Counted from the stretch's first letter, positions 9,369 through 36,149 are shown. The stretch is 64,000 bases of DNA from Patescibacteria group bacterium (GCA_038063735.1 JBBTUN010000005.1:953-64952); one strand, 5' to 3'. The notes: a model not told the origin generated them from the sequence alone. Program-made: numbers and translations.

Positions 9369-12300
9369 ATGGCCAACTTCACTCATCTTCATGTTCATAC
9401 GGAATTTTCTCTTCTAGACGGTTTATCAAAAATAAAAAAACTGGTAACACAAGCCAAAATAATGGGCATGAAAAGCATAGCAATGACAGACCACGGCGCA
9501 ATGTATGGAGCGATAAAATTCTACAACGAGTGCCAAGCAGAAGGCCTAAACCCAATAATAGGCTGTGAAATGTACATAGCCAAAAGATCTTTATCCGATA
9601 AAGAAGCAGGCAAGGACAACGAATACTCTCATTTAACAGTATTATCATGTGACGAAGAGGGCTACAGAAATTTAATGAAGTTGGTAACCATCTCCCACTT
9701 AGAGGGATTCTATTACCGGCCTAGGGTAGATAAAGAATTACTTGCAAAGTATTCCAAAGGTTTAATAGCTTTATCCGGTTGTAATTCTTCCGAAATTTCA
9801 AAAAGTTTTGTGCAAGGCAATTTACAGGAAGCAAAAAAACTGGCCAAAGTTTATACCGAAATATTTGGTCAAAGCAATTTTTATCTTGAAGTCCAAAGAC
9901 ATGAATTTGAAAAGTTTGCAACTGCCCACGAACCAGGCAGTGAAATTTATAACGAATTAACAAGAATGCACAGTGAAGAAATCAAAATAATAAGCGGCGC
10001 GAAAAAATTATCAAAAGATACTGGCCTAAAACTAATCGCAACGAACGATATTCACTATGTTAAGCAACAAGACGCAAATGCCCAAGACGCTATAGTTTGT
10101 ATTCAAACCGGTAAAAACATTTCCGACATTAAAAGGTTGAGAATGATAGACTCCCCTACTTTTTACCTCAAAAGCACGAGCGAAATGGAAGCACTTTTTG
10201 CAGATATGCCAGAAGCCCTGACAAATACCCAAGAGATCGCTAGTCGGGTGAATATCAATCTAAATTTAGGCAAGGTTGCCTTTCCGAATTTTGAAGTACC
10301 TGCAAATACAAATCCCGACGAGTATTTAAAAAAACTATGTTACGAAAGAATCAAAAGTAGGGTTAGTTTAGTTACCGTCGAGATGAAAAAAAGACTGGAC
10401 TACGAACTTTCTGTTATATCCAAAAAAGGCTACTCCACATATTTTTTGGTTGTTGCGGATTTCGTTAACTGGTCACGCGAAAAAGGAATAATCTCCACAA
10501 CCCGTGGCTCTGCTTCCGGAAGCCTTGTGTCTTTTGCGCTTGGCATAACCACAGTTAATCCGCTTTTTTTTAAATTACCATTCGAACGTTTCTTAAATTT
10601 ATACAGGCCAAGCCTGCCCGATATAGATGTAGATTTTGAAGACATAAGAAGGGATGAGGTCATCGCTTATGTGAGGGGAAAGTATGGTCACGACAAAGTA
10701 GCACAAATCGGTACTTTTGGCACAATGATGGCACGTGCCGCAGTTCGTGATGTAGCCCGGGTTCTTGGCTTGCCTTATTCAAAGGCAGATAGAATTGCCA
10801 AAATGATTCCAATCGGAGCGCAGGGTTTTCCAATGTCCATTGACACCGCCAAAAAACAAAATAAAGAATTAGGTTATCTCTACAATCAAGACTCAGAAGT
10901 AAAAGAACTTTTGGATCTCTCGGAAAAGGTGGAAGGCAATGCCAGACACGTTTCGGTGCATGCGGCCGGTGTAGTTATTGGCCCGTCGGAACTCACAAAA
11001 TTTACTCCGCTTCAAAAGGAAACAACCGGAGAAAAAATAATAACTCAATACGACATGCACGATGTTGAAGAAGCAGGTCTTGTGAAAATGGATTTTCTTG
11101 GTATTAGGAATTTATCCATTTTAGGTCAAGCAGTAAAAATAGTCGGCAAAACCAAGAAAATAGAAATTGATCTTTCCAAAATAGCACTAGACGATAAAAA
11201 ATCTTTCGAAATTCTTGCCAAAGGTGAAACCATGGGCCTGTTCCAACTTGGCGGAACCGGTATGACACGCTACTTAAAAGAACTACGCCCGTCATCAATT
11301 TTTGACATTATGGCAATGATCTCTTTGTTTAGGCCGGGGCCGATGAATTCTATCCCGGAGTTTATCGAAAGAAAACATAACTCAAAAAAAATCATTTATT
11401 TTGACCCGCGCATGAAAGATTATCTTGATCAGTCTTACGGTGTAATTGTTTACCAGGACGACGTTTTATTAACCGCCATAAATATTGCCGGATATAACTG
11501 GGAGGAAGCAGACAACTTTAGGAAAGCCATGGGTAAAAAAATTCCTGCAGAAATGGCTAAACAAAAAGAAAAGTTTATAGATGGAGCGATCAAAAACGGT
11601 ATGACTCCTAAAAAAGCCGACGAACTATTTAAGTTAATAGAGCCGTTCGCTGCCTACGGATTTAATAAAGCGCATGCTGCAAGCTACGCTATCATCGCTT
11701 ACGAAACTGCTTATATGAAAGCTAATTACCCGGTAGAATTTATGACTGCAGTCATGACGGCAGAAGCTGACGACCCTGACAAAATAGCTATGGCGGTTGA
11801 TGAGTGCGGGAAAATGGGTATTTTAGTTTTGCCACCAAACATTAACAAATCCGACACGGGTTTTAATATTGAGGCGATAACAGACGATGAATTTAAGGCC
11901 GAAGTTAAAAGAGGCATTATTTACCGCGACACAATACGTTTTGGCCTGTCTGCCATAAAAAATGTTGGCCGTGCTGCAATCGAGGCAATAATCACCGAAA
12001 GGGATGCAAAAGGTGAATTCACATCACTAGATAATTTCGCCAAAAGGATAAATCTGCGCGCCGTTAATAGAAAAACCATGGAAAGTTTAATAAAAGCGGG
12101 TGCCATGGATAAATTTGGAAACCGAAATGCCATGCTAAAAGTTTTAGACGAACTTAAATCAACCGGCACTTCACTGACTAAGGCAATCAGCGAAGGCCAG
12201 GGTTTATTATTCGATACGGCCGAACTTGCAGAAGCGTCAGTTCCTTCTTCTATTGATCACATGCTGCAAACAACCCAAGAGGCGCCAAGAGAAGAAATAT

Positions 12301-27288: not shown

Positions 27289-28164
27289 ATGGATAATAAG
27301 CTGCAGGTTTGTAAGGAAACAAAACAAATCGCCCTGGACGCACTGGCAAATACCTTAAAAGTTATCCTTAAAAAAGACAAAATCGCTGAAAGCGAATTTC
27401 GCAACCTTTGGCTTGCCCAACTTAGGAAAAGCACTAAAATATTTCCAAACGGTTGGTACATGCCACCCCCAAACGGAATTATCGTTTTGTTTGCGACAGA
27501 CAAAGACCCAAAAAGAGTTTTATATCCCAACATGAGGCTGGAAGAAACATGGCCAAGAGACGATGTTTATTTAGATAAAACTAATGGAATCATTGCACTA
27601 TATGCATCTCCTATGGATAGGAAGACAGGCATAATAGGCGATACGGAAGTAATGATTTACCTTAGCAAGAATAAAGAAGTCATGAATACTTTTAAAACTT
27701 GCTACAGGATAAATAGAGAAATCTTTGAATTTGCGCAAGTTGGCCAACAATTTTCTCAAGTCGCTAAATTTGCAAACAAACTCATTGCCAAAAACGGCTT
27801 GACAAATAACGTAGTTAGTACAAGCGATCCTGCCAGCGTGAACCTTGGCCATACAATACCGGTATCTTATGAAGATTGGACTAGTCAGGAAAAAGCAATT
27901 TTTAAAAACGGCGAGAGTCAGTGGGAAAATGTTTGCCAAATAATTGCAAAAAAGAGAAAATTCGTAAACGAAGTAGACGATTTTCAAATAAAAGCGTCTA
28001 TGGCCTTCACTATCGAACCACGACTAAGGCCTAAGGACCGCCCGAATCTTCCAAGCACCTGGACTCATTCAATTGTTTTAATCAAAGAAGATGGTTCAAA
28101 AGAATTATTTTTTGGTTACGAGGAAATTTTCAAAATCTGCGGAATGGACTGGGCGCTAAATTAG
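27289..28164 (+). CDS. M24 (creatinase/prolidase) fold peptidase-like protein
   Basis: 'NLGHTIP' and 'AFTIEPRL' resemble M24 metal-ligand motifs. This is a weak call. Confidence 0.4.
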   Translation: MDNKLQVCKETKQIALDALANTLKVILKKDKIAESEFRNLWLAQLRKSTKIFPNGWYMPPPNGIIVLFATDKDPKRVLYPNMRLEETWPRDDVYLDKTNGIIALYASPMDRKTGIIGDTEVMIYLSKNKEVMNTFKTCYRINREIFEFAQVGQQFSQVAKFANKLIAKNGLTNNVVSTSDPASVNLGHTIPVSYEDWTSQEKAIFKNGESQWENVCQIIAKKRKFVNEVDDFQIKASMAFTIEPRLRPKDRPNLPSTWTHSIVLIKEDGSKELFFGYEEIFKICGMDWALN

Positions 28165-28602
28165 TTAGTTATTTACAGGTTTAGAAAGTTTCTTGTGCAA
28201 GAAGAGGCTGCCATTTGTTAATGTCATTAGTTGGTTTGGAAATTTTATAAGATCCAGTTCTATCCACGAGTTAAGCTTGTTGTGTTTTTTGAGGGCATTT
28301 TTCTCAGAATCAAAAAGCTCCGATTCAAGCCAAAAAAAGTCTTTACTAAAGTCTATCGCTTCCGTTTTATCCAAATTAAAAGTAGTCGGTTTAACCTTTT
28401 TCATTAAATTTATTGTGTCCTCAGTTAGAAATTGGGAAAGATAATTAACTGTTTCTTCACTATTTCCCTTGCACCTGGTGCTAAGCCACGACACGGAGAA
28501 CTTAGACAAAATGTATTTTAAAAACTCGTCTAAGTGAAGAGCAGGCACGACTCCTTTCGTTATGATTACTCCGTCAATTCCTATGTACATATTGCGCTTC
28601 AT
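28165..28602 (-). CDS. hypothetical protein
   Basis: ORF only. N-terminal 'MYIGIDGVI' is weakly HAD-like. Confidence 0.4.
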   Translation of the reverse strand: MKRNMYIGIDGVIITKGVVPALHLDEFLKYILSKFSVSWLSTRCKGNSEETVNYLSQFLTEDTINLMKKVKPTTFNLDKTEAIDFSKDFFWLESELFDSEKNALKKHNKLNSWIELDLIKFPNQLMTLTNGSLFLHKKLSKPVNN

Positions 28603-28716: not shown

Positions 28717-28859
28717 TGTCTGCCCACGATTCTGCCCTTCAAATATCTCAGGATAAACGCTGTTTACCCTGAGCAATGGTGAGTGAAATCGAACCAGAGT
28801 CGAAGGAGAATCAAGTATTTACCTAACTCAAATCATTATACTCAGCTTTAGCTATCTCG
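28717..28859. repeat. cassette-boundary repeat X1 (long form)
   Basis: Shares 'TGTNTGCCCACGATT...GCC', '...CCTGAGCAATGGTGAGTGAAATCGAACCAGAGTCGAAGGAGAAYCAAGTATT' with X2 and the 5' and 3' blocks with X3/X4 ('CAAATCATTATACTCAGC'). Confidence 0.7.
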
Positions 28860-29880
28860 TTTTAATGGCGACAACACAACCAACTATACCTGGGTCTGTT
28901 CTCGTCCTTTGTGCTTCAAAGGCACTACCTTCATACAAATTAGGCATATCGGAATTAATTTCAACGTTGAAATTCTGAAGTAAACCATTAATGCGCTCCA
29001 GCGCCCTCACTCGTTTTGTGTACTCTTGAAGGGAATTTCCTGTTCCCACAGTTATCAGCAAACAACCGTTTGGTTTTAATTTTCCCAAAAACGTTTTCAA
29101 AAGCTTATCAACTTTTCTGTCTTGCTCTCTTCTCTCTTTCCTTTTTACTACTGCGTTTGGGCCTTGAGGATAAATTATTTCTGGATCCATTCTGTTCCAA
29201 AAAATAGTCTGCAAATCGCCCGGGATCAATTCTTTTGTTAGAGCCTCTCCCAGGGATGTGCCAATAAAGAATACTTTATCCTCAGGAACTCCAAAATTTT
29301 TATTAGCTTCATCAAACGCGGAAAGATTTCTTAAGTTTGGCTCAACAGCCACTGCTTGACCACCTACAACAGCGGGTTTTTTATCAAGCCCTGCAAAGGT
29401 ATTAGCAATGGCAACAAAAGCTGCATCTGCTCTGCTAAGAATAGCTACTATGGACTCCTTGCTGGGTGCCTCAATGTAACAGGCAAGGACCTCCGGAGTA
29501 GTTTTTCCTGATCCTATAAAAGCTTTGTCTCCACCTCTTGGGCTGCCAGTAGCAAGCTCAACAGTTCTTACAAATAAGTAAAAGTTAGCAAAATGCGGAA
29601 AGGATGCAGCAATTAGAGGATATTCAACTTCGATGGCAGAGATTTCCAGCTCTGAACGTTTTTTCGCTTCTGCAGCACTTAATTTTTCTCGTTCAAATAA
29701 GTAGTCATATTGGTGAGGGTTTTTTACGAGAGCTCGGTTTATTGAAGCCAGTCTGTGTATACTCTCTGCTGATACTGCTGCCCGAACATTATCTACATTA
29801 GTATTATCAACGCCTAAAAAACTCTCGTGAGGTACAAATAACCCATGCGATGAAAGCTCGCTCCGTTTCCTGTCAGACAT
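28852..29880 (-). CDS. hypothetical cassette protein with P-loop-like 'AFIGSGKTT' motif
   Basis: 342-aa ORF flanked by repeats X1 and X2. The Walker-A-like motif is the only recognisable feature. Confidence 0.5.
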   Translation of the reverse strand: MSDRKRSELSSHGLFVPHESFLGVDNTNVDNVRAAVSAESIHRLASINRALVKNPHQYDYLFEREKLSAAEAKKRSELEISAIEVEYPLIAASFPHFANFYLFVRTVELATGSPRGGDKAFIGSGKTTPEVLACYIEAPSKESIVAILSRADAAFVAIANTFAGLDKKPAVVGGQAVAVEPNLRNLSAFDEANKNFGVPEDKVFFIGTSLGEALTKELIPGDLQTIFWNRMDPEIIYPQGPNAVVKRKERREQDRKVDKLLKTFLGKLKPNGCLLITVGTGNSLQEYTKRVRALERINGLLQNFNVEINSDMPNLYEGSAFEAQRTRTDPGIVGCVVAIKTR

Positions 29881-29920
29881 AAGCGCAGATTATACAACAA
29901 GTCTCCGGAAAGATTAATGT

Positions 29921-30056
29921 GGCCCCACCATTTTCGCCCTCCTCCACTCTTCGAGCTTCGGATGGTTAAACAGTGTTTATCCTGAGCGATGGTGAGTGAA
30001 ATCGAACCAGAGTCGAAGGAGAACCAAGTATTCTCCGAACGAATTTAATATTCAGG
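29921..30056. repeat. cassette-boundary repeat X2 (long form)
   Basis: About 60 nt nearly identical to X1 (4 mismatches in 'TGTTTAYCCTGAGCRATGGTGAGTGAAATCGAACCAGAGTCGAAGGAGAAYCAAGTATT'), plus the shared 5' 'CCCACSATTTTCGCCC' block. Confidence 0.7.
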
Positions 30057-30063
30057 TTCCTCA

Positions 30064-30357
30064 TTGTCTACAGTGATTGGAACAATTCTTGAAAAGTTGA
30101 TGTATAATATTCGTATGAAAACATATATAACATCTAGTCCTGAAATAATGTCGGGTGCACCTGTTATTGTCGGCACTCGTGTCCCTGTCGCCCGAATTGT
30201 TTATCTTTTGAAGGATGGTTTTACGATGGAGCAAATAAGCAAACAATTTCCGCATGTCGGTCTAAAAAGATTGCGGGGTGCCGTGAATGACTTGGCTAAA
30301 AAAGTAGAAACTATTCCTTATGGTACGCAAATTTCACAAACACAAGCTACTGCTTGA
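30064..30357 (+). CDS. DUF433 domain protein (antitoxin-like)
   Basis: 'ITSSPEIMSGAPVIVGTRVPVARIVYLLKDGFTMEQISKQFP' matches the DUF433 pattern. The true start is probably the internal 'MKTYITSS'. Confidence 0.7.
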   Translation: MSTVIGTILEKLMYNIRMKTYITSSPEIMSGAPVIVGTRVPVARIVYLLKDGFTMEQISKQFPHVGLKRLRGAVNDLAKKVETIPYGTQISQTQATA

Positions 30358-30682
30358 TGAAGGGTTCCCTGTCCGTTCTTATTGCCCTATTTTGAATAGA
30401 CGCTTTGATGTTAAGCATATTACCCAAGATTTTAAACAAGTAAGTTTATCAGACAAACAAGTACACGAATTTGCGGCAGAACACAACAGGATTGTCGTGA
30501 CATTAAATATTAAAGACTTTAAACCGCTTTCCCCAACAAACAAAAATACGGGAATAATCGGTGTTTCAGCAGGATTACAGTTTAAACAAGTTGATAGAAA
30601 ACTTACTGCGCTTTTGAATAAATCTACTAAAAAACAGCTGTTGGGCAAACTTACCATTATAAGTGGCGAATCACAAAAGTAA
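30320..30682 (+). CDS. DUF5615 (PIN-like / Mut7-C-like) domain protein (toxin-like)
   Basis: 'KLLLDEGFP...HITQD...NRIVVTLNIKDF' matches the DUF5615 pattern. Overlaps the DUF433 gene, the usual two-gene arrangement. Confidence 0.7.
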   Translation: MVRKFHKHKLLLDEGFPVRSYCPILNRRFDVKHITQDFKQVSLSDKQVHEFAAEHNRIVVTLNIKDFKPLSPTNKNTGIIGVSAGLQFKQVDRKLTALLNKSTKKQLLGKLTIISGESQK

Positions 30683-30776
30683 GTTTCGACAAGCTTAACC
30701 TTCATATTTTAGGAAAGACATTAAACCCTAATTGGGTTACGTCACGCACGATAAGTGGTACTTCGACAACGACCTC

Positions 30777-30898
30777 TGTGACCCCACGATTTTCGCAATG
30801 GAACCAGGCATTTGTCGAACTGAAGTCGTTGTATTCAGCTTTGAGCCAGCCTCAAGAGCCGAACTTAAGCTATCTCCAATTGGGAAGTTGAACTACGG
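30777..30898. repeat. cassette-boundary repeat X3 (short form)
   Basis: 'TGTGACCCCACGATTTTCGCAATGGAAC...CTATCTCCAATTGGGAAGTTGAACTACGG' is collinear with X4. The 3' end overlaps the HDAC-like stop codon. Confidence 0.7.
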
Positions 30899-31837
30899 TA
30901 GCCCAGAAAAGAAGCTCTCAGCTAATTTTCCAATACTCTTTGTATCATATCCTCCTTCTTGAACAAATAAAGTAGGGAGGTTTAATGCTGCAATTTTATT
31001 GGCCATTTTTTTATAGAATGGTCTTGTGAGTGAAAATTTACAAATAGGGTCACCAATGTAGGTGTCAAAGCCCAAAGATACTACTAAGTACTCAGGGCTG
31101 AAATTACTTACTTTTTCCAGAGCTTTTATCAAAGTTTGTTGGTATTTTCTCTCTCCAGTATTTAGTGGAAGCGGGAAATTAAAATTGTATCTCTTTCCAT
31201 CGCCTTCACCTTTCTCTCTAGAGTAGCCAGATTTATGAGGAAAAGCAGCTCTTGGTTCTGCATGGATAGAAACAAACAAAATATCTGATCTTTTATAAAA
31301 CATTTCTTGGGTACCGTTGCCGTGATGATAATCGACGTCTAAAACAGCCACCCTGCCCCTTTTCGATAAGTAGTTTGCCGCAATCGCAGCATTGTTGAAA
31401 AAACAATATCCTCCCATCATCGATTTTCTTGCATGATGTCCTGGGGGGCGACAAAGGCTATAAACAAACATTTCTCCCAGTACTAATCTTTTTGCTCCCG
31501 ACAGCGCAACATTCACCGAAGATTTAGCAGCATCGAATGCCCCATGGGTAATGGGTGTATAAGAATCAAAAGAATAACTGTTTAGAAAAAACTCATCATG
31601 TGTTTTTATTGAACTCGACTTAAGGAAATTCAAGTAACGTTTCGTGTGAAGAGATAGTATCCAAGATTCTCTAAAGCTCCATGCTTTGGCAATCATAACG
31701 CCTTGATTTCTCAATTGTCGCAAAATATTTTCAACTCTATCGGGAACTTCTGGGTTATTTATCAACTCACCATTGAATAATTCCTTTTTCGGTGAATGTT
31801 TTTTGTGTAGCGGAGAATAAACAACTCTAATGCTCAT
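30893..31837 (-). CDS. histone deacetylase / acetoin utilisation (AcuC) family amidohydrolase
   Basis: 'CRPPGHHA', 'VLDVDYHHGNGTQ', 'VSLGFD', 'QEGGYD' (HDAC/arginase-deacetylase fold). Confidence 0.85.
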   Translation of the reverse strand: MSIRVVYSPLHKKHSPKKELFNGELINNPEVPDRVENILRQLRNQGVMIAKAWSFRESWILSLHTKRYLNFLKSSSIKTHDEFFLNSYSFDSYTPITHGAFDAAKSSVNVALSGAKRLVLGEMFVYSLCRPPGHHARKSMMGGYCFFNNAAIAANYLSKRGRVAVLDVDYHHGNGTQEMFYKRSDILFVSIHAEPRAAFPHKSGYSREKGEGDGKRYNFNFPLPLNTGERKYQQTLIKALEKVSNFSPEYLVVSLGFDTYIGDPICKFSLTRPFYKKMANKIAALNLPTLFVQEGGYDTKSIGKLAESFFSGLP

Positions 31838-32835
31838 CTTAGTACCTCCTTCGTGTCTGGTCTTGAGTAGTATTTTTCAATATTTTCAGGAGGTAGGTGC
31901 ATAAAGGTGAAGTCCCTGAGGCCTTTGGGATCAATGCCGTCATTTACTTCAACGTTTTGACAAAGTATTTGCGGAAAGCTATTCTGGTCGTACCTTCTTT
32001 CTGGGACAACAAAGCCTGCTCCATTTGCCGCTCTATCTGAGCGTGACATAAAATTACACTCGGCAAAAATCAGGAATTCTTTTCCTCGTAAATCCCTGAT
32101 GACCTGCGAATTTAGGTGAGCTATGGTTGCAGTTATAAATCCTTGATTTTCATAGCCCTCCAGAGTCTTCCATTCTGTATTTTCAATTAAGTCGACATAC
32201 CCACTACTTGTTCTTAATCTCAATTTTTCTGCCATAGCAGCAGCTACTATCACTCCATCTTTTGTCGCTGAGCTAAACCAAAGCGACCTTCCAATACCAC
32301 GTTCTATATCGCCGTTTAGTCTTCTCCTTAAAGCAGTGATTTCTTCGCCAGACCATCCAAATGTTCGTGACCACAGATTAAGTAGTTGAGCTTCTTGCTC
32401 AGCTGTAAAGGTTGAATTGAAACTGACACCCAAATCCTCAAGCAACCTAACTCTTTCGAATGCACGTCTTGGCTTGTTAACGTAACTGCTAGTTTCTTTC
32501 ACCATTTGAGCTACAGGCACGATAGGTTTTCGACTAACACCATTGTGGGCAGCTAAAATTATCCAGTCATTACCAAATGGCACTATAACTTCAATTTCAG
32601 AAGCAACCTCGGCTGGCATTTTTTGAAAGACATCGTTTGTGACCAGTGATCTAAAAACGACTCGAGAAATCCCGGCTAGTGAGCCTAAATTTCTCAAACG
32701 TCCATAAGCTCGCGACAAAATATCAGGGTTATCTATTGGTGCGCCTTTCCAGTTCCAATAAAGCCTGTCAAAGCCTCTCCGTTTTAAACCAGCCTCTCCT
32801 GTGCTTGAAAAAATTTGTTCTTGTTCTTTTGTCAT
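31834..32835 (-). CDS. hypothetical protein co-transcribed with the HDAC-like gene (weak GNAT-like 'RGIGRSL' motif)
   Basis: Its stop overlaps the downstream HDAC-like gene's start codon by 4 nt (ATGA). No firm family. 'DIERGIGRSLWF' is reminiscent of the acyl-CoA-binding motif A of GNAT acetyltransferases. Confidence 0.5.
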   Translation of the reverse strand: MTKEQEQIFSSTGEAGLKRRGFDRLYWNWKGAPIDNPDILSRAYGRLRNLGSLAGISRVVFRSLVTNDVFQKMPAEVASEIEVIVPFGNDWIILAAHNGVSRKPIVPVAQMVKETSSYVNKPRRAFERVRLLEDLGVSFNSTFTAEQEAQLLNLWSRTFGWSGEEITALRRRLNGDIERGIGRSLWFSSATKDGVIVAAAMAEKLRLRTSSGYVDLIENTEWKTLEGYENQGFITATIAHLNSQVIRDLRGKEFLIFAECNFMSRSDRAANGAGFVVPERRYDQNSFPQILCQNVEVNDGIDPKGLRDFTFMHLPPENIEKYYSRPDTKEVLR

Positions 32836-32842
32836 TTTTTAC

Positions 32843-32880
32843 CACTAAAAAACCCCTCATGTGAGGGGCTATCCTTTTTG
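32843..32880 (-). terminator. hairpin CCCCTC-atgt-GAGGGG followed by a T-run on both strands (intrinsic-terminator-like), 10 nt upstream of the 32835 start codon
   Basis: 6-bp GC stem with a 4-nt loop at 32853-32868. The minus strand has TTTTTT immediately 3' and the plus strand has TTTTT 5 nt 3'. Confidence 0.5.
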
Positions 32881-33096
32881 TGAAATTTAGTCTAAAACTA
32901 GTCCACAACCAAGACGCCCCTGTTGGGGTTTTTCTTGGTTTTGTTTTTAGAAACTAAATAAATAGCCATTTAATGTTTGAATAGTAACAAATACTAATGA
33001 ACATAGTCAAATCTTTTGAGGCTAAAGTCTATTAAACCAAAGAGCTACTCGAACATTTTAGCTTCAAAAAATGTTAAATGGTTTTTAATTTGAGGC

Positions 33097-33219
33097 TGTG
33101 TGCCCACGATTTTCGCAATGGAACTTGGTATTCTCTGAACCCAAATCATTATACTCAAGCCTAAACGTGCCTACCAAAAAATGAACTTGGCTACCTCCCA
33201 CTGGGAAGTTGAACTATAG
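33097..33219. repeat. cassette-boundary repeat X4 (short form)
   Basis: 'TGTGTGCCCACGATTTTCGCAATGGAACTTGGTATTCTCTGAACCCAAATCATTATACTCAAGC...TCCCACTGGGAAGTTGAACTATAG'. Internal direct repeat 'AATGGAACTTGGTATTCTC' / 'AATGAACTTGGCTACCTC'. Confidence 0.7.
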
Positions 33220-33226
33220 TTTTAAT

Positions 33227-33481
33227 TTACCTTGAAAGAGAAAAGACCCAAGGCTTTAATTTATCCTTAGTTTCTTCTACCTCAATTACCTTTTTACCTG
33301 ATTTCAAAAGTGATTTGATCAAGTTCTGATTTTCTTCATTAAGTTCCTCATCATCAGCTGAAAATACCACATAAGAAGTATCTTTTTTTAAGTTCTTTAC
33401 CTCATCTGGATTTTTTTGCAGATAGTCTGCTAACCTGGCAGAAAGATTAATATTTTTTTGTATTTGTGTATTCTTACTCAT
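33227..33481 (-). CDS. small acidic hypothetical protein (antitoxin-like partner)
   Basis: 84-aa ORF located 70 nt 3' of the next gene and abutting X4. Confidence 0.4.
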   Translation of the reverse strand: MSKNTQIQKNINLSARLADYLQKNPDEVKNLKKDTSYVVFSADDEELNEENQNLIKSLLKSGKKVIEVEETKDKLKPWVFSLSR

Positions 33482-33551
33482 TTGACTTCAGGGGAGGAAT
33501 TATACAACATTTTAAATAGTAAACTATGAGTAATAAAATTATAATAACACA

Positions 33552-34034
33552 TTATTTTCTCTTTTTGTTACTTTTCTTGAGGCTATTTAAATAGCCATTT
33601 TTATAATTTAAATACCTATTACTAATATCTTTCACGGCCCAAGTTAACCAATCATTAGAACCACCTTTTTTGATTACACCCACTGTGTTAGTAATTGGTT
33701 CACCGGATCTGAGTCTACTGTGACGGTGAAGAAAACCATGTTCACTATCATATCTACAAAGAGTTTTCCACTTACCTTTGATTAATGTTTCGTACGAGAC
33801 ATTAATAACTTCGCTTACTTCGTTATTGACATCTAGCTGATAAATATATGTAACTCTGTCTGTTCTATCAGAGCTCAACATAAATTGTTGACCTTTCTGG
33901 CTCTTAGGTAATTTAGACAGATCAGGGGTTGCGAGTTCTAGATTTTTCTGTCGTTTAACTAAATGTTTTACAGTCTCTTGCTTTGAAAGTACGACAAACG
34001 ATTTTCTCGGATTCCGATGTGTTCTTCTCCCCAC
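33552..34034 (-). CDS. basic hypothetical protein with C/H cluster 'CRYDSEHGFLHRH'
   Basis: 160-aa ORF 52 nt from tRNA-Glu. No family recognised. Confidence 0.45.
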   Translation of the reverse strand: MGRRTHRNPRKSFVVLSKQETVKHLVKRQKNLELATPDLSKLPKSQKGQQFMLSSDRTDRVTYIYQLDVNNEVSEVINVSYETLIKGKWKTLCRYDSEHGFLHRHSRLRSGEPITNTVGVIKKGGSNDWLTWAVKDISNRYLNYKNGYLNSLKKSNKKRK

Positions 34035-34085
34035 AATATTTAAGATTATAAAGTATTTTACGTGGTATAAACAAAATAAGTTCTG

Positions 34086-34157
34086 TGGCCCTACGGGGAG
34101 TCGAACCCCGCTTTGGACCTTGAAAGGGTCCCGTCCTAACCGATAGACGATAGGGCC
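34086..34157 (-). tRNA. tRNA-Glu (anticodon UUC)
   Basis: Minus-strand sequence GGCCCTA-T-CGTC...GACG-G-GGACC-CTTTCAA-GGTCC-AAAG-CGGGG-TTCGACT-CCCCG-TAGGGCC-A folds as a cloverleaf with a 7-bp acceptor stem. CCA is not encoded. Confidence 0.85.
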
Positions 34158-35192: not shown

Positions 35193-36149
35193 ATGAATTG
35201 GGTCGATTTAATAATAATTCTTGCAATTGGGGTTTTTGCAGCCGATGGTATTAAGCGTGGGTTTTTGATACAAGCCTTTAACATTGTTGGGTTTTTGTTT
35301 TCGCTGCTTTTTGCTCTGGCCCTGTATGCGCAACTGGCAAGCGTGCTGTTAAAGATATTTAATATTCCAGAAATAGCGGCAAACCCTATCAGTTTTTTAA
35401 TCATCTGGATTGTCGCCGAAAGCGCATTTTTTGGGGTTTTAACCGGCATTTATGCTAAGTTTATTGCCCGCTATCACCACATAAAAATAAACAAGTACTT
35501 GGGTATTTTGCCATCCATCGCCAACGCCCTTTTATTTTTGGCGTTTGTCCTGCTCCTTGTGGTCTCTCTGCCAATTCGCCCAGGCATTAAGCAGGATATA
35601 TTTAATTCAAAGTTCGGCGCCGAACTTGTAAACAAGGCAACTTTACTGGAAAAACCTTTTAATGACATATTTGGGCCGATCACCAAGCAGACTTTAACCT
35701 TTTTAACAGTTAAGCCGGAAGACAAGGGCTCGGTAGATTTAAAATTTACCCAAAAAACCGTAAGTGTAGATTATGACGCCGAAAAGCAAATGTTTGCTCT
35801 TGTAAACGAAGAGAGAATGAAAGCTGGCGCCAGGCCGCTCGTTTTGCGGGATAATCTGGCGGAAGTTGCAAGGGCGCACTCGCGGGATATGTTTGCCCGG
35901 GGTTACTTTTCCCATTTTTCGCCGGAAAGTAAAGATATTGGTGACAGGCTCGGGGCAGCAGACATATCCTACACATATGCCGGTGAGAATTTAGCGCTGG
36001 CGCCAAGCGTACAAAGGGCGCACACAGGCCTGGTGAACAGCGAAGGCCACAAAAGAAATATCCTGGACCCCGCTTTCACAAAAATTGGCATAGGCGGCAT
36101 AGACGGTGGAATTTACGGCAAAATGTTTACACAAATATTCACGGAGTAA
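35193..36149 (+). CDS. CvpA-family membrane domain fused to CAP/SCP (PR-1-like, YkwD-type) extracellular domain
   Basis: N-terminal CvpA-like 4-TM region. C-terminal 'HSRDMFARGYFSH...GENLA...GHKRNILDPAFTKIGIG' CAP motifs. Confidence 0.7.
   Translation: MNWVDLIIILAIGVFAADGIKRGFLIQAFNIVGFLFSLLFALALYAQLASVLLKIFNIPEIAANPISFLIIWIVAESAFFGVLTGIYAKFIARYHHIKINKYLGILPSIANALLFLAFVLLLVVSLPIRPGIKQDIFNSKFGAELVNKATLLEKPFNDIFGPITKQTLTFLTVKPEDKGSVDLKFTQKTVSVDYDAEKQMFALVNEERMKAGARPLVLRDNLAEVARAHSRDMFARGYFSHFSPESKDIGDRLGAADISYTYAGENLALAPSVQRAHTGLVNSEGHKRNILDPAFTKIGIGGIDGGIYGKMFTQIFTE

Follow-up and report, generated by a model that had tools for sequence, protein, structure and literature searches.

Organization of the locus

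The DNA studied here is a stretch of 64,000 nt from a Patescibacteria group bacterium (GCA_038063735.1, JBBTUN010000005.1:953-64952), which is called the window throughout. The contig originates from Hainich groundwater, and the names of the homologues of its genes suggest a host lineage near Candidatus Curtissbacteria. Only tRNA-Glu and tRNA-Lys were detected in the window by ARAGORN, and the subject of this work is a repeat family, X, four copies of which (X1 to X4) lie downstream of tRNA-Glu among small units of one or two genes that we call cassettes. Read on the minus strand, an MscS-like gene and tRNA-Glu are followed by a DUF7718 and a DUF5647 gene, X4, a 333-amino-acid (aa) gene with a Hist_deacetyl-family gene, X3, a reversed DUF433/DUF5615 pair, X2, a 342-aa ORFan, X1 and a 145-aa gene, the last of which converges with an M24-like gene. 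Each full-length copy of X marks the border between one- or two-gene units. The features of the array are the following (L014 is a contig of a second strain, and the family profile is described in the next section).

28165-28602, minus strand: 145-aa gene with a DxDGV motif near the N-terminus, distal anchor of the array
28717-28858, minus strand: X1, truncated variant, family profile E 6.4e-06
28852-29880, minus strand: cassette, 342-aa ORFan, 5' part also in L014
29918-30058, minus strand: X2, truncated variant, family profile E 7e-04
30064-30682, plus strand: reversed cassette, DUF433/DUF5615 pair, not in L014
30777-30899, minus strand: X3, full-length junction repeat, family profile E 5.9e-29
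30893-32835, minus strand: cassette, 333-aa gene of no known family and 314-aa Hist_deacetyl-family gene, not in L014
32990-33096, minus strand: P' flank, conserved DNA after the end of X4, GCCTCAAATTAAAAACC...TTTTTTGAAGCTA...
33097-33221, minus strand: X4, full-length junction repeat, family profile E 2.7e-33
33227-34034, minus strand: cassette adjoining the tRNA, DUF7718 (160 aa) and DUF5647 (84 aa) genes, not in L014
34085-34157, minus strand: tRNA-Glu (UUC), found by ARAGORN, proximal anchor of the array

The X repeat family

The four copies described in an initial annotation of this DNA were all found where it had placed them and in one shared orientation. X3 and X4 were 74% identical across 123 nt (nhmmer E ~1e-12), and the 3' block that they had been said to have in common was confirmed (27 nt, 89%). 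X1 and X2 had a 69-nt block in common, with 91% identity (nhmmer E ~1e-16). Similarity between the two pairs was weak when single sequences were compared (E 0.02-0.14). A family profile was built from six full copies, namely X3, X4, L14a and L14b from L014, and L22a and L22b from L022, a contig of another species that also contributed the copies L22c and L22e; this profile, also used for the family consensus, regained X1 (E 6e-06) and X2 (E 7e-04) and so joined all four copies. The 5' motif reported as common to them occurred four times in the window with 0-1 mismatch, and with up to two mismatches it gave seven matches against 1.2 expected, a number reached in 0 of 100 shuffles. No further copy was detected in the 64 kb with either single sequences or the six-copy profile. 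X3 and X4 are complete units; X1 and X2 are truncated variants carrying insertions.

Read in the orientation of tRNA-Glu, which is the minus strand of the window, the blocks of X follow the order A-B-C-E. Block A consists of GTTYAAC and a short inverted repeat, CTCCCA-nn-TGGGAGATAGCYAAGTTC (CTCCCA-nn-TGGGAG), and where the cassette gene before it is a forward one, it mostly begins 0-15 nt past that gene's stop codon. Blocks B (TTTTGCTAGGCAC..CTAGGCTTG) and C (TGTATAATGATTTGAGTTCRGAGAAYACTTGGTTCC) are conserved and hold a TTGCTA-18-TATAAT-like box. The element is closed by block E (ATTGCGAAAATCGTGGGGCCACA), and the consensus of the X ends is CGTGGGGCCACA. After block C there is an optional, palindrome-derived insert, CCCTTTCAATATTTCAGGGTAAAC plus its complement, partial forms of which occur in X1, X2, L14b, L22a and L22b. 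X1 and X2 additionally bear a block D, the insert first noted in these two copies.

X4 runs A-B-C-E and ends ...ATTGCGAAAATCGTGGGCACACA; its GTTCAAC heptamer begins 12 nt past the stop codon of the DUF5647 gene, and that of X3 overlaps the TAG stop of the deacetylase-family gene by one base. X2 has neither block A nor block B; it contains the D insert together with a palindromic hairpin, and its end, GCGAAAATGGTGGGGCCACA, precedes the start codon of the 342-aa gene by 37 nt. X1 keeps a remnant of block A (GAGATAGCT), 3 nt past the stop of the 342-aa gene, has lost the interior of block B, contains the D insert and a 12-bp hairpin, and ends in CAGAATCGTGGGCAGACA. The P' flank (GCYTYAAATTAAAAAC...TTTTTGAAGCT) continues five junctions, and a shorter version of it, YAAATTMAAAAC, was found after three X ends other than that of X4 (L14b, L22b and L22c).

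The palindrome located between blocks C and E, CCCTTCAAATAT-CTCAGGRTAAAC-loop-GTTTAYCCTGAG-ATATTTGAAGGG, lies at positions 28747-28775 and 29964-29986 of the window, ~745-775 of L014, and ~12170-12195 and ~12843-12868 of L022. Its forms in these five copies are partial and differ from one another, as though arms had been lost by slippage.

Other possible identities of the repeat were discarded. A blastx comparison with all 659 stop-to-stop open reading frames (ORFs) of the window matched X only, contrary to what a remnant of a duplicated gene end would give. A dispersed repeat of the miniature inverted-repeat transposable element or repetitive extragenic palindromic type was rejected because the ends are unrelated (TGTGG...CCCAC versus ...GTTGAAC) and the copies are clustered within 4.5 kb. 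Small peptides encoded in X were also rejected, as by inspection the reading frames differ among copies. Finally, the internal direct repeat noted in X4 had been considered as a family feature of the arm-type binding site kind, but it was dropped: in X4 its significance was marginal, 35 of 1000 shuffles equalling it, and none of the remaining five full copies showed a significant one.

Comparison with a second strain and with other relatives

L014 is a contig of 1367 nt from a different Hainich well, found by a metagenome scan with a 22-nt degenerate motif; it was the sole real match, the others (L012, L013 and L015) being chance matches with no extended similarity. Its positions 1-207 correspond to 29731-29937 of the window with 99% identity and span the start of the 342-aa gene, the spacer and the 20-nt end block of X2, at the inner edge of which the identity ends abruptly. 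At the other side, L014 1313-1367 is exactly window 34084-34138, the identity beginning at the 3' end of tRNA-Glu (34084). Between these anchors, genes of 92 and 139 aa, with two X copies at their borders, replace the three cassettes of the window, which contain the putative toxin-antitoxin pair, the deacetylase-family and 333-aa pair, and the DUF5647 and DUF7718 genes. The cassette content therefore differs between two strains with X at the borders of the exchanged segment.

The 261-kb contig L022, from another species, was found through its MscS-like protein, which is 76% identical to that of the window. Downstream of its tRNA-Glu there are two full copies of X (E 1e-29 each) and four partial ones, all in tRNA orientation, and each full copy begins at most 15 nt from the stop of a small ORFan. 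This array ends at an orthologue of the 145-aa gene (61% identity, L022 16178-16585), and six of the seven other small ORFs between the tRNA and this distal anchor are beside an X or an X remnant. As tRNA-Glu and the 145-aa orthologue are shared, the arrays of the window and of L022 fill the same interval with unrelated contents. One cassette gene is common to L014 (139 aa) and L022 (164 aa), with 42.5% identity and at differing array positions; it is reversed in both, and in both its start is beside an X. The X copy beside it in L022 is L22e, and among the four full copies compared with L22e the closest one was L14b, the copy beside it in L014; this gene appears to travel with its X.

No X was found in three other loci anchored on the MscS-like gene (L023, L024 and L026), and L023 had no other junction repeat either. 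In L024 the tRNA-Glu has the same sequence, with one mismatch in the 26-nt 3' end, and typA lies 32 nt after the tRNA with no array. This direct passage from tRNA-Glu to typA fits what would be expected for an unoccupied site. The relatives identified through the M24-like gene (L007 to L011) also had no X. Scanning a genome collection with the 19-mer CCCACGATTTTCGCAATGG gave unrelated matches (L001 and L002) of the kind expected by chance, and no match to X was obtained in viral contigs searched with three patterns, in phage records or in plasmid records.

In L007 (1916-3812), the closest of the relatives identified through the M24-like gene (70% identity), this gene is 47 nt from a Colicin_V/CAP gene and divergent from it. 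In the window the two genes (27289-28164 and 35193-36149) point the same way and are separated by 7 kb that include the array and both tRNAs, and the neighbourhood is rearranged as well as expanded relative to L007. In addition, three Logan contigs that are independent short-read assemblies of this locus (L004, L005 and L006) all break off within X2, in the block that X1 also has, and the 1.2-kb contig L018 holds the 342-aa gene only. The three ends were considered as a sign of heterogeneity and are read as repeat-induced fragmentation, the assembly graph probably being broken by the 35-nt exact repeat shared with X1; alternative joins in the population would look alike.

Relationship between the X ends and tRNA-Glu

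The tRNA-Glu gene ends ...GGGGTTCGACTCCCCGTAGGGCCACA, its 3' terminal 12-mer being CGTAGGGCCACA. The consensus of the X ends, which stands at the extreme end of the repeat, agrees with this 12-mer at 11 of 12 positions, and single copies agree with it at 9-10 of 12. In the three independent assemblies (window, L014 and L022) all copies of X are downstream of tRNA-Glu and in its orientation. Furthermore, at 11006-11031 of L022, 35 nt past the tRNA, the last 26 nt of tRNA-Glu are duplicated perfectly, and the ~110 nt that follow the duplicate align with the P' flank found after the end of X4. Owing to this homologous flank, the duplicate of the tRNA end in L022 and block E of X4 are positionally equivalent. 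It has the appearance of a scar left by an integration and a later deletion.

Within L022 10897-11031, ARAGORN also gave a spurious overlapping tRNA-Cys(aca) at 10935-11030, a call explained by the perfect 26-nt duplicate. On the minus strand, the X1/X2 insert (window 28738-28808 and 29938-30020; CTCCTTCGACTCTGGTTCGATTTCAC) holds TTCGACTC, which is the T-loop 8-mer of tRNA-Glu, and a second T-loop-like sequence, GGTTCGATTTC. Block A, when GTTCAACTTCCC was compared with GTTCGACTCCCC, agreed at 10 of 12 bases, which is not significant. These pieces of the insert and of block A could be further decayed scars of tRNA ends or the result of chance.

RNA structure and expression signals

The initial annotation had offered a structured noncoding RNA and a terminator or insulator module as possible functions of X. 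For the first of them, cmscan against Rfam gave nothing on X at gathering thresholds nor at E up to 10 (the weak matches nearby, snoR103, PreQ1 and sR46, are outside X and below threshold), and ARAGORN found no tRNA or transfer-messenger RNA (tmRNA) gene on it. The minus-strand RNA folds were no better than those of shuffles (z -0.04 to -1.9). RNAalifold consensus structures of the six aligned copies were weak, at -8.7 and -5.4 kcal/mol, and covariation contributed a term close to 0; the covariation measures were reached by 84-188 of 500 shuffles, six sequences giving limited power for covariation. Covariation was hence not above controls, and the proposal of a structured RNA was not supported. 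As regards the pairing of TTCGCAATGG with CCAATTGGGAA, it is visible in X3 and X4, as had been noted, but it is missing from the six-copy consensus structures and, by inspection, is not kept in L14b, L22a and L22b.

A more specific form of this idea is that X gives a small minus-strand RNA, either started at the TATAAT box inside X or cut out of cassette transcripts, in which GGTTCCA...TGGGGCC-ACA would form a tRNA-like minihelix similar to the tRNA-Glu acceptor stem. The GGTTCC/GGGGCC helix is found, fully or partly, in the minimum free energy folds of four of seven copies (L14a, L14b, L22a and L22c) and, inspected base by base, could also form in X3; the 3' strand GAACC of L22a turns two G-U pairs into A-U, the helix of L14a was caught by the terminator scan with 11 pairs, and a promoter-like box lies just upstream. 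However, X4 and L22b do not form the helix, L22c forms it weakly at best, and large insertions or truncations are tolerated exactly in this region in X1, X2, L14b, L22a and L22b. With the Rfam, ARAGORN, fold energy and covariation results given above also against it, such an RNA seems very unlikely.

Concerning expression signals, X might be an intergenic module, made up of a hairpin ending one unit and an outward promoter, that is inherited with each gene, the cassettes being shuffled by homologous recombination without a dedicated recombinase. The homology would come from the tRNA, the flanking genes and the X copies, for instance after DNA uptake from related strains. The start of X 0-15 nt past stop codons would agree with this, and so would the CTCCCA-nn-TGGGAG of block A, kept in most copies (helix 2 is paired in 87% of cells), and a TTGGTA/TTGCTA-18-TATAAT box that was detected in X4 and L14b with a promoter score of 10/12 and is also visible in L14a, L22a and L22b. 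Moreover, a same-orientation gene follows five of the six X copies of the window and L014, the Pfam scans of the window revealed no recombinase nearby, and the strain breakpoints match the ends of shared sequence, as flank-mediated replacement would give. Nevertheless, no U-tract terminator was predicted inside any X, and promoter-like sites were not commoner in X than in shuffles by consensus scans. X3 faces a convergent operon, and the cassette genes come with TATAAT boxes of their own, 6-12 nt upstream of the ATG, which makes that of X unnecessary. An expression module also leaves unexplained why the X ends copy the terminus of tRNA-Glu, why L022 has a perfect duplicate of it in place of an X end and why the repeats are confined to the 3' side of one tRNA. 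For these reasons we regard it as unlikely.

Proposed recombination mechanism

The combination of a fixed tRNA anchor, repeats imitating the tRNA end, variable cassettes, an unoccupied relative and a travelling cassette is the pattern of site-specific accretion at a tRNA. X is thus probably an att-type (attachment-site-type) recombination junction of a tandem array of small cassettes placed immediately downstream of tRNA-Glu in a Curtissbacteria-like lineage. A recombination site was among the functions first suggested for X, and it is favoured by the comparisons, with X at the borders of variable cassettes and with tRNA-like ends; the integron attC form given to it is not, as discussed below.

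In the mechanism that we propose, cassettes consisting of flank, own promoter, one or more genes and X would be inserted, lost and exchanged by recombination of an X site with the 3' end of tRNA-Glu or with another X. The recombinase would be supplied in trans, by a gene at another place in the genome or by a helper element. With every event an X would be left between adjacent cassettes, by which the array would grow between the tRNA and the conserved 145-aa gene. We infer that recombination is site-specific rather than homologous. Both the break of identity between strains and the insertions are at the boundary of blocks C and E, which would make it the most likely crossover region.

Several observations weigh against site-specific recombination at X. 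Chance alone would give ~2.7 occurrences of a 12-mer with up to two mismatches in the window, position ignored, and alignment of the whole X to tRNA-Glu was not significant by shuffling. The match to the tRNA is short, and the case is therefore made by position, orientation and the L022 duplicate together. The E blocks are alike among themselves in a form unlike the T-arm of the tRNA, and mere displacement of tRNA ends does not account for them. Pfam scans of 50 window ORFs and of cassette proteins revealed neither an integrase nor another recombinase, and none is in the precomputed Pfam listing for the 20-kb L022 locus, for which reason the mechanism is only proposed. The P' flank is found after X4, which of the copies is nearest the tRNA, and not after the most distal X, which a strict model of insertion always at the tRNA does not predict. 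The strain breakpoints fit homologous replacement through shared flanks equally well. No excised circle and no junction of one repeat with another was seen. Finally, the comparison comprises three arrays (window, L014 and L022) of one small clade.

A further, only tentative proposal is that some bacteria of the candidate phyla radiation (CPR), namely a Curtissbacteria lineage, possess an integron-like platform for gene capture, with the 3' end of tRNA-Glu as primary site, a new composite site of ~125-230 bp (X plus P'), promoter-bearing mini-cassettes of one or two genes and a recombinase encoded elsewhere. If so, genomes regarded as poor in mobile elements would have a cassette system with a mechanism of its own. 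The genomes of CPR/Patescibacteria are small, with descriptions of few classical mobile elements, and consequently their gain of strain-specific genes is poorly understood. This locus displays a turnover of one or two genes at a single tRNA, between strains of the same aquifer and between species, with a recognisable element at every junction. As a recombination site, X would be a sequence by which arrays and their cargo could be located in metagenomes, a defined substrate with which the recombinase could be identified, and a point of comparison between the structure-defined attC of integrons and the sequence-defined att of tRNA-targeted islands. Even if it is not one, X would still be a useful marker of a flexible micro-island.

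Cassette genes and neighbouring features

No defence-system or phage protein family was found among the cassette genes. The DUF433/DUF5615 pair is a putative toxin-antitoxin system by Pfam family only. The protein of the distal anchor (window 28165-28602, L022 16178-16585) had no match in Pfam, NCBIfam, PADLOC or PHROGs; it starts with MxxNxYIxIDGVIxTxG, and its DxDGV is read as a HAD-type motif I, which would make it HAD-like. Outside the array, the window ORFs with Pfam matches are largely housekeeping genes (pyrimidine synthesis, GatA/B, penicillin-binding protein, enolase, LexA and UvrC, among others).

The TATAAT boxes of the cassette genes, one of which is 8 nt upstream of the ATG of the 342-aa ORFan, are accompanied by no obvious Shine-Dalgarno sequence (window 29881-29917; L022 12213-12266, 12893-12943, 14062-14144 and 15266-15322). 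Their position suggests that the cassette mRNAs may be leaderless or nearly so.

A 37-nt repeat with 73% identity is found upstream of the 333-aa gene (32935-32971) and between, or overlapping, the DUF7718 and DUF5647 genes (33564-33600); it contains the palindrome GGCTATTTAAATAGCC or a related sequence and could be an operator or a terminator-like hairpin. The 260-nt leader from X4 to the 333-aa gene has hairpins with T-tracts (32851-32870 and 32916-32962), and the PreQ1-riboswitch match in it is below threshold (17.8 bits versus a gathering score of 39, E 4.2) and most likely due to chance.

Comparison with known systems

Integron arrays, including those with no nearby integrase (clusters of attC sites lacking integron-integrases, CALIN), are made up of small, mostly single-ORF cassettes with attC repeats of ~60-140 nt straight after the stop codons and in one orientation. 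The attC site has a pair of core sites (R''/R'), L''/L' pairing with extrahelical bases and a hairpin in single-stranded DNA (ssDNA), and a complete integron has at one end an IntI integrase, the primary site attI and a Pc promoter. The X array could be taken for such an array, since its ~125-nt repeats follow mostly single ORFs, many of them ORFans, in the same orientation, a reversed putative toxin-antitoxin cassette is present, GTTYAAC, fitting RYYYAAC, is beside the stop codon in five of the six full copies, and growth would be from a fixed site. However, no GTTRRRY partner exists at or beyond the other end of X3, X4, L14a, L14b, L22a or L22b. The GTTGAAC that had been likened to an integron core site is thus at one end only, and as GTT-N-AAC is its own reverse complement, its fit to both the core and the inverse-core pattern is uninformative. 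Neither L''/L' pairing nor an end-to-end imperfect ssDNA hairpin was found on either strand; ssDNA folds of four copies gave z -1.5 to +0.5 against shuffles, with local hairpins only. Across copies X is conserved in sequence and not in structure, the array is anchored on the tRNA end that X imitates, which would be its primary site instead of attI, no attI or intI was found and no IntI-like protein appeared in the Pfam scans of the 50 window ORFs, and the cassettes seem to carry promoters of their own. That X is an attC site is therefore extremely improbable.

Islands at small-RNA genes are closer in organization. The features of tRNA-targeted islands found here are the position 3' of a tRNA with repeats in its orientation (window, L014 and L022), the variable content between conserved flanks and the unoccupied site of L024. 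In Dehalococcoides, tandem islands downstream of ssrA are each bounded by a 20-bp ssrA repeat and an adjacent conserved non-ssrA motif, and some units have no integration genes and may be cis-mobilizable according to the authors (McMurdie et al., 2011, PMC3146451). The X array agrees with them in having tandem units straight after one small-RNA gene, strain-variable content, a streamlined genome, and a boundary repeat that resembles the gene 3' end and adjoins a conserved motif outside the gene. It differs in its target, tRNA-Glu and not tmRNA, and in its units, of 0.6-2.3 kb with one or two genes, whereas the ssrA islands are several kb long with a six-gene integration module. In addition, X shares ~12 nt, imperfectly, with the tRNA, and its conserved non-tRNA part is ~110 nt or more; neither a DsiB-like serine recombinase nor any other recombinase was found in the X-array sequences.

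Islands seeded by tRNAs in Prochlorococcus are built by successive integrations in which older elements are pushed outward, leaving partial tRNAs and degenerate remnants, and the tycheposons found in them have tyrosine recombinases, replication or packaging modules, and att sites that are partial tRNAs of ~40 nt (bioRxiv 10.1101/2020.12.28.424599). The X array also adjoins a specific tRNA gene in a streamlined genome. Unlike tycheposons, it has no hallmark genes, and its ~125-nt composite repeat imitates the tRNA only at the end. Cis-mobilizable elements, which derive from integrative and conjugative or integrative and mobilizable elements and lie beside an integrase-bearing partner (PMC5704250; the term is also used in PMC3146451), resemble the X array in being att-type-flanked units without integrase or transfer genes, which would need a recombinase in trans and accumulate in tandem. 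In contrast to them, no partner element is visible at the X array and the units are far smaller. The X array resembles an integron or a tRNA-seeded genomic island and fits neither exactly. It is a tRNA-anchored additive island, or cassette array, with distinctive traits, namely very small promoter-bearing cassettes, a long composite junction repeat and its occurrence in a CPR lineage.

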